Assembly: GCA_964512765.1 (NCBI GenBank)
Contig: CAZEKF010000009.1
Coordinates: forward strand, 30 to 64,029
Direction of reading: 5' to 3'
Origin: an uncultured Methanosarcinales archaeon
Lineage (GTDB): Archaea; Nanobdellota; Nanobdellia; Woesearchaeales; GW2011-AR15
DNA: 64,000 bases
Shown here: positions 1 to 63,219 of the stretch, one piece after another
Layout of the letters: every line of letters starts with the position of its first letter
Numbering within the stretch: the first letter of the stretch is position 1
The notes under the pieces: model-generated
The model's input: the letters and a program-made list of their open reading frames with translations, nothing else
What the model was told of the DNA's origin: nothing
The model's database searches: none
Translations under genes and position numbers: made by a program

Positions 1-683
1 CCGTTCTAGTTAGACGCCTTCGCCACAGGTGGTCCACAAGGGATTATCGCATTTTACCACTACCCCATGCATACCTCTAACTCCTCCCGGTCTCAAGATC
101 AGCAGTCTCCTCTGCATGCTGTTTGGTTAAGCCAAACAATTTCACAAAGGATTTACTAACCCGGCTACAGATGCTTTAGGCCCAATAATACTGGTCCCCA
201 CTTGTGGCGCTGGTGTTACCGCGGCTGCTGGCACCAGTCTTGCCCACCACTTATTCTCCGAGCTATTTACACTCGGCAAAAGCTCATGCATTGCATGAGC
301 ACTCAGAGTCCCCTTATCACACTTGCGTGTATTGTAAAGTTTTCGCGCTTGCTATACTCCGTGGAGTCAGAACCCTTATCTCAGTGTTCTCCTCGAGGCT
401 ACCTCTTTCAAGGCCCCTACCGATCGTTGGCTTGGTGGGCCATTACCCCACCAACAACCTAATCGGCCGCCGTCTCATCCTTAGGCGTAATCTTTCAGGG
501 AAAGAACATTCCAGTATAATTCCCATATCAAGTATTAGACTCAGTTTCCCAAGCTTATCCTTGACCTAAGGGCAGATTAACGACGTGTTACGGAACTTTC
601 CGCCGGTGACCGAAGTCCCCTTGACTAGCTTAGCTAAATCGAACTCTGATAGCAGCGACCTCCCGCAGGATCAACGGGTATTA
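1..683 (-). rRNA. rrs: 16S rRNA, 5' ~680 nt (gene continues beyond the left edge)
   Basis: The rc of 663-683 reads TACCCGTTGATCCTGCGGGAGG, an archaeal SSU 5' end. The rc of 216-234 is GTGCCAGCAGCCGCGGTAA, the universal 515 region. The rc of 14-23 is GGCGAAGGCG (about E. coli position 725). ORFs 202-462 and 204-569 lie inside the rRNA. Confidence 0.95.
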
Positions 684-895
684 TTTTAGAATAGCGTTTG
701 TTATGCCGCACTACTCTCTTGTTTTACATCCTTCTGTATTATGTACGGTCTTTGGTATCAATTGTACTTTTGAATTGTACGAGTTTACATCGTATCAAAT
801 GCCTTTTTCATACAAGATTTTCACGTCTTGTACACATGATTAACGTAATAGAATATTTGGAGATGATTAAGACTTGATAATGAAATTTCAAGTGG

Positions 896-1908: not shown

Positions 1909-3069
1909 TTACTTATTGATCATGTCATATATTTTTTTAGTATTTTCACACATTAATTCAACAGAGAAGTTACTAATTATATGTTCACGTGATTTTGTTG
2001 CATGTTCTTTTAGCCACTTATCATTTTTTACTGTAGAAACTACAGCTTTCGCAATCTCTTGATGTTTACCTGGATTAAATAATAAGCCATGTTCTGAAAT
2101 TATTTCAGGTATTGCACCTGATCTCGCACCAATCACTGGTGTTTCACACGCCATTGCTTCAATAGCTACCATTCCAAACGGTTCACTCCATCTGCTTGGA
2201 AATACATATATGTCAGCAGCCCCGTACAATTCAAGAAGTTCCTCTTTAGTTACCCAACCTAATAAATATGTGTGCCTTAAATTCAGTTTTTTAATAAGAT
2301 TTTTTAGATAATTAAAATAAGGCCCATCGCCAGAAATTAATGTTGTAACACCCTCTTTTTCATATTGCTTAGCAGCATTAATAAGATCTTCATGCCCTTT
2401 CTCTTTTGTTAAAAATCCAGTTGATAAAACTAATTTTTTTCCTAGACAATTATACTTTTGCTTTACTTTATTTTTCTTTTCTCCTGGAACAGGTTTAAAC
2501 TCATCAGTATCAACACCTAAATATACAACTATAATTTTTGAGCTATTAATATTAAATTCTTTTTTTATCTGATTTGCAGTAAATTTACTATTTGCAAGAA
2601 TATATTCTGAATTTTCCAGTCCTTCTTTGGCAATCTTATAATTTCTCTTTGATTCCAGTGAAGAATTTACGCCAGTACCATGAGCTGAAACAACATATTT
2701 TACACCAGTTTTTTCTTTTATTTTGCTGCAACAGTATGGTAAAATTGAACAGTGATTAGCGTGCATTAATGTGTTTCCTTTAACACTTTCTAATCCGGCT
2801 TTTGTAAAAATATCAATTAATTTGAAAAATTCTTTATCAGATATTTCAGAAAGTTTAATGTTTATTTTGACATCGTTCCTTCCTTGATAAACCGGAATTT
2901 GAAAAGGTATCTCTGGTGTTGTTATTTTTATTCCATCTAATGGTTTGATCTTCATTCCACAAACTAAATGAACTTGGTTTTTTGTTTTGAAATAATTCAT
3001 TATATACCTTAAATAAATACCACTTCCGCGTTCATAAGGTCTATGGAGAAAAAGATACGAAATATTCAT
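1909..3069 (-). CDS. glycosyltransferase, GT4 (GT-B) family
   Basis: C-terminal motif EPFGMVAIEAMACETPVIGARSGAIPEII is typical of GT4/RfaB-like enzymes. Confidence 0.85.
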   Translation of the reverse strand: MNISYLFLHRPYERGSGIYLRYIMNYFKTKNQVHLVCGMKIKPLDGIKITTPEIPFQIPVYQGRNDVKINIKLSEISDKEFFKLIDIFTKAGLESVKGNTLMHANHCSILPYCCSKIKEKTGVKYVVSAHGTGVNSSLESKRNYKIAKEGLENSEYILANSKFTANQIKKEFNINSSKIIVVYLGVDTDEFKPVPGEKKNKVKQKYNCLGKKLVLSTGFLTKEKGHEDLINAAKQYEKEGVTTLISGDGPYFNYLKNLIKKLNLRHTYLLGWVTKEELLELYGAADIYVFPSRWSEPFGMVAIEAMACETPVIGARSGAIPEIISEHGLLFNPGKHQEIAKAVVSTVKNDKWLKEHATKSREHIISNFSVELMCENTKKIYDMINK

Positions 3070-16209: not shown

Positions 16210-16557
16210 TTAGAAAGCGCTGAACTCATCTAAACTGTCTAACATACCTTTTCTTCGTAGCATGTTAACCTGTGCTTTTGTGTATTTGAAAACAATATCG
16301 CCTTTATCATCAGGGTTTAATTCCCATGGTTCTACAAGAATAATGTCACCTGGTCTGACCCATAACCGTCTTTTTAACCTGCCAGGAATTCTACAGTTAC
16401 GTGTTTTACCGTCTAAGCAACGTACAAAAGATCTTGAACCGCCGACCCTTCTATCTAGCAAGCCAATCACTTGGTTACCTCTTGGTAATCTTGTCCTTCT
16501 AATCTCTTCCTGTAGTGCTTCTTGTCTTGCTTTTTCTTCTTTTTCCTTTTTACCCAT
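16210..16557 (-). CDS. eif1a: translation initiation factor aIF-1A
   Basis: S1-like OB core VIGLLDRRVGGSRSFVRCLDGKTRNCRIPGRLKRRLWVRPGDIILVEPWE. Length is 115 aa. Confidence 0.92.
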   Translation of the reverse strand: MGKKEKEEKARQEALQEEIRRTRLPRGNQVIGLLDRRVGGSRSFVRCLDGKTRNCRIPGRLKRRLWVRPGDIILVEPWELNPDDKGDIVFKYTKAQVNMLRRKGMLDSLDEFSAF

Positions 16558-16610
16558 TAGAACAACTGAAATTCAGTGCTATATATAAAACTTAGTATGT
16601 AAAGATAAAT

Positions 16611-16618
16611 TTTATAAG
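16611..16618 (+). promoter_or_regulatory. Candidate TATA box for tRNA-iMet
   Basis: TTTTATAA lies about 26 nt upstream of tRNA position 1 (16644). Confidence 0.45.
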
Positions 16619-16643
16619 TCAAGGGTTTTTCTCAGGAAGATAT

Positions 16644-16785
16644 AGCGAGGTAGAGCAGTCAGGAGTGCTCGTTGATCTCTTAAACGAGAGCGAAAGGCTC
16701 ATATGGCTGCAATAAAGCCGAAGACACCCAATTGAGAACATAATTCTCAGGGTATAGGTCGGAGGTTCAAATCCTTTCCTCGCTA
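16644..16785 (+). tRNA. initiator tRNA-Met(CAU) interrupted by three introns
   Basis: The gene reads AGCGAGG TA GAGC AGTCAGGAGT GCTC G TTG[21 nt]GG CTCATA[22 nt]A CCCAA[24 nt] AGGTC GGAGG TTCAAAT CCTTT CCTCGCT A. It has A1:U72 and three G:C pairs at 29-31/39-41. The mature length is 75 nt. Confidence 0.8.
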
Positions 16786-16864
16786 TAAAAAACGTTGGAG
16801 AGGAATTTCCTTTCCAACATTATTTTTCTAAAAGTTTATAATGAAAATCTTATTTTAATTTTAT

Positions 16865-17521
16865 ATGCTAATCTGTGGTATTGACGAAGCAGGTAAAGGA
16901 CCTGTGATAGGTCCATTAGTAATGGCAGGAGTAGTTATAGACTCTGAAGATGAGTTTAAACTAAAGATGTTAGGTGTAAAAGATTCTAAATTATTAACTA
17001 AAGAAAAACGTGATGAACTGTACAAAAAAATTCTAGGTTTGGTTAAAAGTTATAAAATAATTAGTGTAACACCGGACATTATTGACGAACATTTGAAATC
17101 AGAAAAAAGTAATTTGAATATATTAGAAGCAAAGACAACAACAGAAATCCTTAATGAGTTAGGTCCTCAAAAAGCAATCATTGATTTGCCAGATAAAAAC
17201 CCTGAAAGATATCAGGAATATATTCTAGAAGATTTAAAGAATAAAGACATGGAATTAGTGACAGAACATAAAGCAGATTATAATTATCCAGTTGTTGCAG
17301 CAGCCTCAATTCTTGCTAAAGTAACCCGAGATAAATACATTGATTTTCTAAAAGAAAAGTTTGGTGAAGATTTTGGCTCAGGATACATGTCTGATGAAAA
17401 AACACAAAAATTTCTTGAAAAACATTGGAACAATCATTCAATTAACTTTTTCAGAAAAGAATGGGTATCATGGAAGAATTTAAAAAAAGAAAAAGAGCAG
17501 AAAAGATTGTTTGAGTTTTAA
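16865..17521 (+). CDS. rnhB: ribonuclease HII
   Basis: ICGIDEAGKGPVIGPLVMAGV and HKADYNYPVVAAASILAKVTRD are RNase HII catalytic motifs. Confidence 0.92.
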   Translation: MLICGIDEAGKGPVIGPLVMAGVVIDSEDEFKLKMLGVKDSKLLTKEKRDELYKKILGLVKSYKIISVTPDIIDEHLKSEKSNLNILEAKTTTEILNELGPQKAIIDLPDKNPERYQEYILEDLKNKDMELVTEHKADYNYPVVAAASILAKVTRDKYIDFLKEKFGEDFGSGYMSDEKTQKFLEKHWNNHSINFFRKEWVSWKNLKKEKEQKRLFEF

Positions 17522-24318: not shown

Positions 24319-24528
24319 ATGCGTCCGTTAAGAGATCGAATTGCTGAAACAATTTATAATTTGCAACCCTGTACTCATCGTATGTTTCCGCATGCGACAA
24401 ATGATCAATTGATGGAAATGCACAGATCTCATGTACAAAGGTTCGGATATGCATTAAATTTTAGTAGTATACCAATTCAACAGTACAATAGAATTAGTAG
24501 AGATTTTAGGACCTGTCATTGGCCTTAA
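24319..24528 (+). CDS. small hypothetical protein (69 aa)
   Basis: ATG preceded by AGAGGA. It overlaps the 3' end of taw3 convergently by 23 nt. No motif recognised. Confidence 0.35.
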   Translation: MRPLRDRIAETIYNLQPCTHRMFPHATNDQLMEMHRSHVQRFGYALNFSSIPIQQYNRISRDFRTCHWP

Positions 24529-25066
24529 TAAATTCCTTATTCAATCTTTTAATTTTATCTCTTGATCCAAGTAGCTTATTATTTGCTTCTTTAATTAATA
24601 ATTGAAGATACTCATCAGATAGCTCAATATCTTTAGAAAAAGGAACATCCATTTTTTCTAAGAATAAGATTTCTACAATAATACGTTTCTTAAAACTAAG
24701 TAATGCAGATCTTCTGAAACCTAATTCATTAGCTTTTTTTAGTAAATAATATGCAGAATCTAAATCTTTAGCACAAATGTGTAATATTGGCGGTTCTACT
24801 CTGAACCATATAGTTTCTTCAGGTAGTTTGTTTAAAGGCAAATCATTTAGTTTTATTGGCTCATGCGAACTAAACAACCATTCAGCTTCATGCTTAATTT
24901 TACTTGGTTTAATAAACATTATCCTGCCTGAGCACGAGCTTGTTGTATAATAATCAGGATGGTTGTTGATTAATTTGACTAAATTCAGAATATGCTCATC
25001 TAAATCCCCTTTTCTGGACTTGTCCAGTTTTGACAAAGCTTGTTTTTTTTCGTTGAGAAAGTTCAT
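24506..25066 (-). CDS. taw3: tRNA wyosine-derivative methyltransferase Taw3/TYW3
   Basis: TYW3 signature YYTTSSCSGRIMF. Length is 186 aa. Confidence 0.8.
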   Translation of the reverse strand: MNFLNEKKQALSKLDKSRKGDLDEHILNLVKLINNHPDYYTTSSCSGRIMFIKPSKIKHEAEWLFSSHEPIKLNDLPLNKLPEETIWFRVEPPILHICAKDLDSAYYLLKKANELGFRRSALLSFKKRIIVEILFLEKMDVPFSKDIELSDEYLQLLIKEANNKLLGSRDKIKRLNKEFIKANDRS

Positions 25067-28603: not shown

Positions 28604-29728
28604 GTGGAGGTGTTAATTTTGGACATTAAAGTTAATGAAGATTTCAAGTCATCGCCTAAAGGAATTTCTATTACAAAACCGCACGAGATTGATCGTGAGC
28701 TAGAAGAAATTCTTGCCAGGCAAAAAGCCGCAATAAAAGTAATTGGGACAGGTGGTGCAGGTAATAACACAATAAACAGAATAACTGAAGTTGGTATTGC
28801 AGGTGCTGAGTCTGTTGCAGTTAACACAGACGCGCAAGATTTGTTATACACAAGCGCTGATAAAAAGATTCTCATTGGTAAAGACCTTACTAAAGGTCTA
28901 GGTGCAGGTTCTATACCTAAAATTGGTGAAGAAGCTGCTAGAGAAACCGAAGCTGAGCTAAGGAATACAATGCAAGGCGCAGACATGGTGTTTATCACAT
29001 GTGGTCTAGGTGGTGGTACTGGTACTGGAAGTGCTCCTGTAATAGCTGAAGTTGCTAAAAAATCCGGTGCATTAATTGTAGGTATTGTTACAATGCCTTT
29101 TTCCATGGAAGGTCAGAGAAGGTATGAGAATGCTTTATTAGGTCTAGAAAAACTTGAACGGGTAGTTGATACTTTAATTGTTATTCCTAACGATAAATTA
29201 TTAGAATTAGCGCCAGATTTACCCTTACACACAGCATTTAAAGTTGCAGACGAAATTCTAACAAACGCAGTTAAAGGTATTGCTGAATTAGTTACAAAAG
29301 CTGGTTTAGTAAACTTAGACTTTGCAGATATTAAAGCTATCATGGGCTCAGGAGGGGTTGCTCTTATTGGAGTAGGTGAATCAGACACAGAAAACAGGGC
29401 AACTGAAGCTGTTGAAAAAGCTATAGAGAATCCTTTACTAGACGTTGACATTGCAGGCGCATCTGGTGCATTAATCAATGTATCTGGTGGTCCTGACATG
29501 ACATTAGACGAAGCTAGGAAAGTTGTTGAAACTGTTTCTAACAGACTAGACGAAGACGCTCGTGTTATATGGGGAGCTAGCATTGCTGAAGATTTGCAAG
29601 GTAGTATTCGTACTATTCTCATCATAACAGGAGTTAAAAGTACTCAAATCTTTGGCAGAGAAAAACGGTTAGTAGAAAAAGAAAAGCAAGATATTGAAGA
29701 AGAGCTAGGGATAGAGTTTGTTGATTAA
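28604..29728 (+). CDS. ftsZ: cell division GTPase FtsZ (probable start TTG 28619)
   Basis: GTGGAGNN and the tubulin signature [13 protein letters not shown] are present. SD GGAGGTG at 28606-12 overlaps the tracked GTG start. Confidence 0.95.
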
Positions 29729-60702: not shown

Positions 60703-63219
60703 ATGACTTCTTTTGATAATATGGACAATTTATTACCTTTTGAAACAACTAAAAGATCAGTTTATGTTAGAAAACAGTTTAAAACTTCTGACAAGTTTGG
60801 TAAATTACCTGGAAAAAGAACAGTTGATGAACTGATTAATTTAGGTGTTGTTAATGTTGACAAACCAGCTGGCCCTACAAGTCATCAAGTTTCTGCTTAT
60901 GTTCAAAAGATCTTGGGCATCAAAAAATCAGGCCATTCAGGCACATTAGACCCGAATGTTACAGGAGTGTTACCTGTGGCTTTGAAAAAATCAACAAAAG
61001 TTATTCAAACATTGCTTAAAGCTGGTAAGGAATATGTTTGTTTAATGCATTTACATAAACCTGTTAAAGAATATGACTTGTATAAAGCACTTGAGAAATT
61101 TACTGGTAAAATTAATCAATTACCACCTATCAAAAGTTCTGTTAAACGACAATTAAGAGAACGTACAGTGTATTATATTGATGTTTTAAGTATTCAAGAT
61201 CAGGACGTGTTGTTTAAAGTTGGGTGTGAAGCGGGAACTTATGTGAGAAAATTATGTCTACATCCAAATACACAAATTTTAACAAATGAAGGTCTTATGA
61301 GTGCTTCTGATTATTATTTCAATCCTAAGAGAATATATTCATTTAATAAAGGTAAAATGATTGAAAAAAATCCTTCAGCAACTCAAAAGATCCAATCTCC
61401 TGAAAAATTAGTTAAGATTACAATGTCTTCTGGAGTTCATATAATTATAACACCTGACCATGAATTATTAACCTCAACAATTGATGGTTATAAGATGAAA
61501 AAAGCTTCAGAAATTAAAAAAACAGATTATTTAGTCAAAAGCCTTAATTTTCCTCATAAATCAAAACAAATATCAATATCCGACTTGTTAGATGATGACT
61601 ATTTAATACAACAAAAGAATATTAAGAAAGAATGTAAAAATGCTTTCATTAGCAAATATGGAAGTATAAGAGCAATGAATAGAGCATTGAAACTAGATAG
61701 AAAAGCATTTCTGTCAAAATCAGACCATGCAATAACTATAAAACATCTTAAACTTGCAGGAATTTACAATAAAATTAAGAAAGAAATCCATACTTTTAAA
61801 ACACAGAAAGGATCATTAATCACATTGAAAAAATTAAATGAAGATTTATTTTATCTTTTTGGATTAATTGCATCTGACGGTAATAACACAAAAGAAAAAG
61901 GAACAGTCAGACATACTAGAATAAAGTTTCATAATAAGAATGAAGTATTAATTGACCAATTTTTAAAAATATACAAAAAACTCTTTCCGAATATTCCAAT
62001 TTCTAAAACTAAAATGACACCTACTTTATTTCAACTTGATACAACAAACAGTTTTTTAGCTACAATTGCAGCATCATTTGGAATAAAAAGTCCACAAAAA
62101 TATTCTGATTTATTACCAATAGTTAATGCAAACTCTAATTTAATAAAATCATTTTTAAGAGGTTACTTTGATGGTGATGGTTCAGCATATTTCAAAAAAA
62201 CACGAACGAATCATAAAACCAAAATCTGTTTACATACAATTAGTTCACAAGAAAGTGTACGATTACATATGATGCTCCTCAAAGTAGGTATACCAAACAA
62301 AATATTTACCAGAAGAGTCAATAGTAAACTCGTATCTAAAGGAAAAGAAGAAAAAATGTATGAAGTTGCAATTGGTAATATTTCGAGTGAAAAGAAATTT
62401 ATTAAAGAAATTGGGACAAATCATCCTGAAAAAGCGAAAAAATTTGAAAAAATATTGAGTTTAAAAAATGCTAGGAGATCATGTGACCATTATTATATTG
62501 GATTTCATTATAAAAAATATATTAAAGAAAAAAAATCTTTATTACATGCCATGGGAGGTAATTTATCACGGATTTCAAAAGAAAAAATCCCAATTACTAG
62601 AGGTTTCTACAAAAAGGCTTCAACAATGTGTAAATTACCAGAACTTGACGATTTTATTATTGAAAAAATTAAATCAATTGAATCTGTTGTTGGAACAGAT
62701 TATGTATATGACATGACTGTTCCGAAGACACATAATTTTTTAATAGAGACTGGTTTTGTTTCATCAAATTGTCACGACATTGGCCAGGAACTTAAAATCG
62801 GAGCGCACATGGCAGAGCTAAGAAGAACAAAAGCCGGTCCTTTTAATGAAACAACATTGTTTACGTTACAAGATTTGACAGACGCTCTTTATTACTATAA
62901 AAAACATCATAATGAAAAGTTTATTAGAAAAGTTATACAACCTGTTGAAGCAGCAGTTGATCATTTACCTAAGATATGGGTTTTTGACACTACTGTTGAT
63001 AGTCTGTGCCATGGTGCTTCATTAGCAGTGCCAGGAATTAGTAAATTAGAGACAGGCATTAAAAAAAATGAGTTAGTTGCTATTTTCACATTAAAAAATG
63101 AACTAATATGTTACGGTGAATCATTACTTACTTCTAAACAAATGATGGCTGATAAAGGATTAGCTGTTAAAACTGATAAAGTTGTAATGGATAGAGAAGT
63201 TTATCCGAGGATAAAATAA
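60703..63219 (+). CDS. cbf5: H/ACA RNP pseudouridine synthase Cbf5 (TruB family) containing an intein
   Basis: The exteins carry VNVDKPAGPTSHQV, GHSGTLDPNVTGVLPV and EAGTYVRKL|CHDIG. A PUA domain sits at the C-terminus. The exteins sum to 333 aa. Confidence 0.92.
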   Translation: MTSFDNMDNLLPFETTKRSVYVRKQFKTSDKFGKLPGKRTVDELINLGVVNVDKPAGPTSHQVSAYVQKILGIKKSGHSGTLDPNVTGVLPVALKKSTKVIQTLLKAGKEYVCLMHLHKPVKEYDLYKALEKFTGKINQLPPIKSSVKRQLRERTVYYIDVLSIQDQDVLFKVGCEAGTYVRKLCLHPNTQILTNEGLMSASDYYFNPKRIYSFNKGKMIEKNPSATQKIQSPEKLVKITMSSGVHIIITPDHELLTSTIDGYKMKKASEIKKTDYLVKSLNFPHKSKQISISDLLDDDYLIQQKNIKKECKNAFISKYGSIRAMNRALKLDRKAFLSKSDHAITIKHLKLAGIYNKIKKEIHTFKTQKGSLITLKKLNEDLFYLFGLIASDGNNTKEKGTVRHTRIKFHNKNEVLIDQFLKIYKKLFPNIPISKTKMTPTLFQLDTTNSFLATIAASFGIKSPQKYSDLLPIVNANSNLIKSFLRGYFDGDGSAYFKKTRTNHKTKICLHTISSQESVRLHMMLLKVGIPNKIFTRRVNSKLVSKGKEEKMYEVAIGNISSEKKFIKEIGTNHPEKAKKFEKILSLKNARRSCDHYYIGFHYKKYIKEKKSLLHAMGGNLSRISKEKIPITRGFYKKASTMCKLPELDDFIIEKIKSIESVVGTDYVYDMTVPKTHNFLIETGFVSSNCHDIGQELKIGAHMAELRRTKAGPFNETTLFTLQDLTDALYYYKKHHNEKFIRKVIQPVEAAVDHLPKIWVFDTTVDSLCHGASLAVPGISKLETGIKKNELVAIFTLKNELICYGESLLTSKQMMADKGLAVKTDKVVMDREVYPRIK
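61255..62769 (+). mobile_element. Intein (505 aa) with LAGLIDADG homing-endonuclease domain inside cbf5
   Basis: It starts CLHPNTQILT and has block B ITPDHELLT. The LAGLIDADG motifs are LFGLIASDGNN and FLRGYFDGDGSAY. It ends VYDMTVPKTHNFLIETGFVSSN followed by +1 Cys. Confidence 0.88.

Follow-up and report, generated by a model that had tools for sequence, protein, structure and literature searches.

A 142-nt tRNA gene at positions 16644 to 16785 (forward strand) of the window, i.e., the whole 64,000-nt stretch of DNA that was analysed, is very probably an initiator tRNA-Met(CAU) gene interrupted by three protein-spliced introns of the bulge-helix-bulge (BHB) type, at positions 29/30, 37/38, and 43/44, in an AT-rich DPANN archaeon. 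An earlier note on this DNA had proposed such a gene from the letters alone and had called the host AT-rich and DPANN-like. The latter description agrees with a GC content of 31.7%, an archaeal SSU rRNA, and nearest genomes labelled Nanoarchaeota or Woesearchaeota MAGs, and the host fits the Woesearchaeota (Nanoarchaeota of GTDB).

The unspliced gene scores 32.1 bits against the Rfam tRNA model (RF00005; gathering score, 29). Joining the four exons listed in Table 1 gives a 75-nt product with a 7-nt anticodon loop and 21/21 stem pairs, which ARAGORN calls as tRNA-Met(CAT) with a clean cloverleaf (stems of 7, 4, 5, and 5 bp). ARAGORN in default mode misses the gene and reports zero tRNAs across the 64-kb window. 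A scan of the 64 kb with Rfam gave no tRNA match other than 16644-16785, also when the threshold was permissive, and a T-arm pattern search of the window returned only this gene and one chance match within a coding gene. The acceptor, D arm, and T arm lie where the earlier note had placed them, and its three deletions of 21, 22, and 24 nt do leave exactly 75 nt, with the anticodon arm TTGGG-CTCATAA-CCCAA in the ARAGORN fold and one hairpin in each excised piece. The distance of 85 nt that it gave between the D and T arms is correct only without the variable loop AGGTC; 90 nt separate the D stem from the T stem.

Initiator identity is indicated by the CAU anticodon together with A1:U72, A11:U24, and G29-31:C39-41 in the spliced sequence. 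These three pairing features are marks of archaeal and eukaryotic initiator tRNAs, and in the tRNomics work of Marck and Grosjean such features reportedly define the initiators of both domains. No CCA is encoded at the 3′ end of the gene (16644-16785).

Table 1. Features of the initiator tRNA locus, in window coordinates
Feature	Position	Strand	Remark
aIF1A gene	16210..16557	-	Pfam eIF-1a on identical product; divergent from the tRNA; synteny anchor
TATA-box-like element TTTTATAAG (TTTATAAG box)	16610..16618	+	ends 25 nt upstream of position 1
Acceptor AGCGAGG / CCTCGCT	16644-16650 / 16778-16784	+	discriminator A at 16785
Exon 1, tRNA positions 1-29	16644..16674	+	acceptor 5′ strand, D arm, G26, U27 U28 G29
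D arm GAGC-AGTCAGGAGT-GCTC	16653-16670	+	sequence
Intron 1, 21 nt, 29/30	16675..16695	+	strict BHB
Exon 2, tRNA positions 30-37	16696..16703	+	G30 G31, C32 U33, anticodon C34 A35 U36, A37
Intron 2, 22 nt, canonical 37/38	16704..16725	+	relaxed BHB
Exon 3, tRNA positions 38-43	16726..16731	+	A38, C39 C40 C41 A42 A43
Intron 3, 24 nt, 43/44	16732..16755	+	exact BHB core
Exon 4, tRNA positions 44-73	16756..16785	+	variable loop AGGUC, T arm, acceptor 3′ strand, discriminator A
T arm GGAGG-TTCAAAT-CCTTT	16761-16777	+	sequence
Downstream hairpin GTTGGAGAGGAATTTCCTTTCCAAC, then T-rich run TTATTTTTCT	16794..16829	+	sequence only
RNase HII gene	16865..17521	+	Pfam RNase_HII on identical product

The gene sits between those for aIF1A and RNase HII. 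The element TTTTATAAG is a putative promoter, and a TTTATAA(A/G)-type box is found at a similar distance in many orthologous loci, e.g., L006 and L007. Judged from its sequence, the downstream hairpin with its T-rich run is a likely transcription stop. Elsewhere, the window contains an archaeal SSU rRNA gene that runs off the window start and is represented by its 5′ part (1-681, minus strand), a gene for the TYW3 methyltransferase of the wybutosine pathway (24506-25066, minus strand), a complete FtsZ gene (28604-29728), and a Cbf5/TruB-type pseudouridine synthase gene (60703-63219, plus strand; DKCLD, TruB_N, TruB_C_2, and PUA) split by a LAGLIDADG intein.

The decisive evidence is comparative and consists of the match between the predicted spliced product and an intron-free tRNA in a relative. 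Relatives were sought with aIF1A, taking one genome per species, and five were found. In one of them, the MAG “archaeon SI047_bin43” (L006), whose aIF1A is 82% identical, an intron-free 75-nt tRNA gene (2849-2923; Rfam, 62.5 bits) occupies the same site upstream of aIF1A. This tRNA and the intron-free tRNAs beside aIF1A in L013 and L014 are identical to the predicted product at 75/75 positions; exon 1 corresponds to positions 1 to 31 of the 75-nt L006 gene, and exon 4 is 100% identical. This identity also supports, indirectly, the removal of the introns from the mature RNA. Because the flanking genes of these three loci share only 71 to 75% nucleotide identity with those of the window, L006 represents an ortholog in another species rather than a second copy in the same genome. 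L006 fixes all three boundary pairs uniquely; a shift of any boundary by one base alters the product. A second relative, L007 (aIF1A 78% identical), carries an ortholog with a single 21-nt intron at 37/38, and a tRNA beside aIF1A is absent in L008, L009, and L010. At the level of sequence, the comparison thus demonstrates the identity of the gene and the boundaries of its introns, and the proposal of a three-intron initiator gene is borne out by the intron-free and one-intron orthologs as well as by exact splicing motifs at introns 1 and 3.

Splicing motifs were scored by the published geometry, in which a 4-bp helix lies between two 3-nt bulges bearing the splice sites, and positions 32 to 35 were placed in the central helix for the 37/38 intron (PMC4090602). 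The background of motifs of such quality in the window is 1,647 over 64,000 × 49 combinations, or ~5e-4 per site and length. At introns 1 and 3, cleavage is predicted at precisely those boundaries that the ortholog defines. The central helix of intron 1 pairs 16669-16672 (UCGU) with 16690-16693 (GCGA) at 4/4 positions, flanked by the bulges 16673-16675 (UGA) and 16694-16696 (AAG), a 4-bp inner hairpin (16676-16679/16686-16689), and a 2-bp outer exon helix (16667-16668/16697-16698). That of intron 3 pairs 16726-16729 (ACCC) with 16750-16753 (GGGU), again at 4/4 positions, with bulges at 16730-16732 (AAU) and 16754-16756 (AUA), a 6-bp inner hairpin (16733-16738/16744-16749), and an outer exon helix of 0 to 1 bp. 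Among the three junctions, intron 2 alone lacks an exact motif: its central segment, CUCA (16698-16701) against GAAG (16720-16723), forms 2/4 pairs (C32-G and U33-A) and leaves C34.A and A35.G unpaired. Its bulges are UAU and ACA, its hairpin (16705-16708/16716-16719; GGCU/AGCC) was scored at 4 bp, and its outer helix is the anticodon stem, of 2 bp while intron 1 is present and 5 bp once it is removed. In the predicted fold, a 6×6 internal loop separates the anticodon stem from a 5-bp hairpin, and the intron fits the published “relaxed” BHB class rather than the strict one. The strict hBHBh′ form also has outer helices h and h′ beside the bulges; the inner hairpins of all three introns are good, but the short outer exon helices of introns 1 and 3 and the poor motif of intron 2 count against the three-intron reading.

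Relatives support these helices by covariation. Introns also occur at 29/30 in L012, L015, and L030, where the central helix shows the compensatory changes U24-A to C24-G and U27.G to G27-C, and in the 37/38 intron of L007, GAAG is unchanged while the hairpin covaries (CUCA/UGAG instead of GGCU/AGCC). A perfect central helix with an outer helix of 0 to 2 bp characterizes eight of the nine noncanonical introns scored (29/30, 43/44, and 53/54); the exception is the intron of L038 at ~58/59, which has no BHB in the register tested and whose boundary is ambiguous. All 37/38 introns of the lineage have 2 to 3 of 4 central pairs, with a complete anticodon stem outside.

The strongest of the alternatives, an improbable one, is that the gene is a decaying or silent pseudogene, i.e., an initiator gene broken by three insertions while an intact second gene elsewhere supplies the function. 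This would account for the failure of ARAGORN to detect it, for an Rfam score barely over the threshold, and for the weak motif of intron 2. The weak 37/38 design is, however, common to every 37/38 intron in relatives with an otherwise intact gene, and exact BHB motifs in two of the insertions line up with the required junctions. Moreover, all 75 exon positions are identical to those of a functional-looking ortholog although the neighbouring genes have diverged to 71 to 75%, and the promoter box is kept. A single initiator gene is usual in small DPANN genomes, which also counts against a second copy.

A tRNA-Lys(CUU) with a single intron and a long variable arm is very improbable. With introns allowed (-i), ARAGORN does return tRNA-Lys(ctt) on 16643-16786, with a product of 97 nt once a 47-nt intron is taken out. 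This solution demands an unpaired variable region of roughly 25 nt in a class I tRNA, two G.U pairs in the anticodon stem (U-A, U.G, G.U, A-U, U-A), and an intron one base away from the canonical site, and it has no support from orthologs. The three-intron product instead matches the intron-free tRNA at the syntenic site throughout, and the lysine call is effectively refuted by the L006 ortholog.

The three-intron reading might also be an artefact of search freedom, as nearly any stretch flanked by a D arm and a T arm could be made to fold by three free deletions. Enumeration of deletion triples (three pieces of at least 10 nt each, 75 nt left, and at least 3/4 D-stem pairs kept) gave 15.1 million, and 15,245 of these produce a full cloverleaf with 21/21 stem pairs, including a second CAU solution with the anticodon stem TTGAT/ATTGA. 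That the gene folds after three deletions is therefore weak evidence alone, and a brute-force search found no full cloverleaf with 0, 1, or 2 introns (best score, 25/27). A chance cloverleaf is nevertheless refuted by the comparative data and has a negligible probability, since the gene has genuine, uninterrupted acceptor, D, and T arms and exceeds the Rfam gathering score without any deletion, and since only the solution of the earlier note matches an independent orthologous sequence exactly and it alone has BHB motifs at its junctions. The identity of the product to the intron-free ortholog and the strict BHB cores at introns 1 and 3 make the three-intron solution nonrandom.

For the three-intron gene, a stepwise splicing pathway can be proposed. 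A 142-nt transcript would start from the TATA box located about 25 nt upstream. In this primary transcript, the anticodon stem would be unable to form, because intron 1 splits its 5′ strand and the 3′ end of intron 3 occupies A38 to C41 of its 3′ strand by base pairing; two exact motifs (3-nt bulge, 4-bp helix, 3-nt bulge) would arise in its place. EndA would cut each bulge two nucleotides in, and an RtcB-type ligase would join the exons. Only then would the 5-bp anticodon stem form and present the 37/38 intron as a relaxed BHB consisting of the stem, a partly mismatched central segment of four positions, and a hairpin. A second round of cleavage and ligation would release the 75-nt tRNA, with CCA added later.

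Folding predictions suggest this order, in which introns 1 and 3 are removed before intron 2, because both of their BHBs are present in the unconstrained minimum free energy (MFE) structure of the 142-nt precursor and because of the architecture that intron 2 adopts after their removal. When introns 1 and 3 are deleted and the arms enforced, the cloverleaf has −33.0 kcal/mol, against an MFE of −34.8, and contains the anticodon stem, the 6×6 internal loop, and the 5-bp hairpin; the MFE structure of the L007 gene has the same architecture. Counting against the proposed pathway, a competing 7-bp helix between the 5′ end of intron 2 (UGGCUGC, 16704-16710) and the D arm/loop (GCAGUCA, 16655-16661) is seen in the MFE structures of precursor and intermediate alike. 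As L007 does not conserve this helix, it is probably due to chance. Sequential BHB formation and an order of removal have been described for closely spaced introns in multi-intron tRNAs (PMC8450103).

The enzymes of this pathway, EndA and an RtcB-type ligase, are presumed to be encoded in the host. No Pfam match to EndA (PF01974/PF02778) or RtcB was found among the ORFs of the 64-kb window, including at a relaxed E value for unannotated ones; 58 of the 61 called ORFs and one 58-aa ORF were scanned directly, and for aIF1A, RNase HII, and IleRS, precomputed Pfam assignments for identical or nearly identical products were used. A phmmer search of the window and all fetched loci with an M. jannaschii EndA query also found no EndA, but this is a weak test. 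The broad-specificity splicing endonuclease that the earlier note had deduced is a reasonable proposal for the host, and the idea is not new for DPANN (Kaneta et al. 2018, PMC5829648).

Metagenome contigs extend the comparison. At least 24 of them encode an identical aIF1A protein, and 5/5 loci fetched from such contigs (L001 to L005) match the window at 100% over the tRNA locus, so this strain-level comparison is uninformative. Scanning of metagenome contigs with a degenerate 5′-exon pattern added 36 more loci. Many loci have no intron. Others have an intron at 37/38 only, of 14 to 29 nt and in one case 288 nt (L007/L043, L016/L020/L023, L025, L028, L034, L035, L036, and L046), at 29/30 only (L030), or at 53/54 only (L044). 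Two introns are found at 29/30 and 37/38 (L012, L015, and probably L019, in which the gene is cut by the contig end), at 37/38 and 53/54 (L024 and L040), and at 37/38 and about 58/59 (L038). Three introns, and any intron at 43/44, occur among the retrieved loci in the window allele alone. Searches with blastn-short for copies of the three introns in the window and all loci returned only short chance matches and therefore provide no evidence for intron transposition.

Several further features of these loci were observed. The 288-nt intron of the initiator ortholog in L036 (252-614, plus strand; inserted at 37/38) contains a reading frame of roughly 90 codons with one in-frame TAG, and its read-through product has a weak, subthreshold match to VRR-NUC nucleases (E = 0.027); the frame may represent a nuclease gene carried by the intron, or what is left of one. 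An initiator-like gene in L011 (about 803-877, minus strand) has the same 5′ 28 nt, the anticodon stem TCGCC/GGCGG, the loop CTCATGA, and an acceptor mismatch; it could be either a pseudogene or a diverged paralog. In L006 (about 2759-2775, minus strand), and also in L013 and L014, the intron-free initiator gene is followed about 73 nt downstream by a second copy of the tRNA 3′ end, AATCCTTTCCTCGCTA, which looks like an att-site duplicate or the scar of an integrated element; the window hairpin at 16794-16818 (...GGAATTTCCTTTCC...) may be its decayed homolog. Other tRNA genes of 97 to 187 nt are located in L016 (6112-6222), L018 (2247-2347), L030 (1287-1473), L040 (2131-2256), and L024 (5437-5533). 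In at least those of L016 and L018, introns appear to interrupt the anticodon stem on its 5′ side (about 28/29 to 30/31), the 187-nt gene of L030 may contain several introns, and the ARAGORN isotype calls for these genes look wrong.

A broader interpretation, which we consider rather doubtful, combines a recent burst of BHB-intron gain in the single initiator tRNA of the lineage with an endonuclease that has two recognition modes. Such a burst may be reflected in the range from 0 to 3 introns across genomes with still-identical exons and in the five insertion sites among relatives. In the first mode, noncanonical introns may be recognized through an exact bulge-helix-bulge with almost no exon-exon helix. 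In the second, recognition of the canonical intron may depend on the anticodon stem, the central helix being mismatched and C34 and A35 unpaired; if true, this would be nearer to the eukaryotic “mature-domain” mode than to that of classical archaeal EndA.

The finding has practical consequences for annotation. Rfam at the gathering threshold with default filters left the initiator alleles of L024, L030, L036, L040, L043, and L044 unreported in a 140-kb batch, although an identical allele, that of L007, was detected when the batch was smaller. As ARAGORN misses an essential gene and Rfam misses several intron-bearing alleles, the tRNA complements of DPANN MAGs will look incomplete, as Kaneta et al. 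had suspected, and standard pipelines will undercall disrupted tRNA genes in such MAGs. With this gene, the range of three-intron tRNA genes comes to include the initiator tRNA and a Woesearchaeota-like archaeon, and the presence of 0, 1, 2, or 3 introns in one orthologous gene provides a natural series for the study of BHB-intron gain and loss and of what a DPANN splicing endonuclease accepts. Both multi-intron tRNAs and disrupted tRNA genes of DPANN archaea have been described before; what is new is an initiator tRNA with three introns in a Woesearchaeota-like member of DPANN, and the gene does not reveal a new mechanism.

Three introns per tRNA are the maximum reported in archaea, mostly in Thermoproteales (PMC4090602, PMC4033280, PMC8450103), in agreement with the statement of the earlier note that such genes are described mainly in that order. 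For example, reviews (PMC4090602 and PMC4033280) of the work of Sugahara et al. 2007/2008 give 25/26, 37/38, and 56/57 as the intron sites in tRNA-Pro(UGG) of Pyrobaculum islandicum. The initiator gene resembles those of Thermoproteales in having three short BHB-type introns, one canonical and two noncanonical, located so close together that one must be removed before the motif of another forms (PMC8450103). Of its sites, 29/30 is a noncanonical site listed in review (PMC4090602), whereas 43/44 is not among the sites in that review; the 53/54 site of relatives is also a known one. Unlike in Thermoproteales, the host is a mesophile-like, AT-rich DPANN archaeon rather than a crenarchaeote, the affected tRNA is the initiator, and all three introns fall in the anticodon arm or at its margin. 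The endonuclease of Thermoproteales is of the (αβ)2 type.

TRNAs with multiple introns are also reported for N. equitans, ARMAN, and others (PMC4033280), and DPANN EndA variants include the ε2 EndA of ARMAN-2 (PMC3488258). The available text of Kaneta et al. 2018 (PMC5829648) associates DPANN lineages possessing α4 EndA with an L3 loop with increased tRNA gene disruption, including multiple-intron genes, covers genomes of one Woesearchaeota and one Pacearchaeota member, and takes incomplete tRNA sets as a hint of undetected disrupted genes. The host belongs to the same superphylum and may possess the L3-loop EndA of those lineages; the gene at 16644-16785 and its allelic series are not described in that text. 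Heterogeneity of tRNA introns within populations and lineages is known from “Ca. Caldiarchaeum subterraneum” (PMC3293823), and intron transposition in Thermoproteales is attributed to Fujishima et al. 2010 as cited in PMC4090602; no intron copies were found elsewhere in the window and fetched loci here. As in those archaea, orthologous tRNA genes vary in intron presence and position among close relatives, and gain or loss must therefore be fast. In contrast to them, alleles with no intron and with three introns are found here with identical exons.
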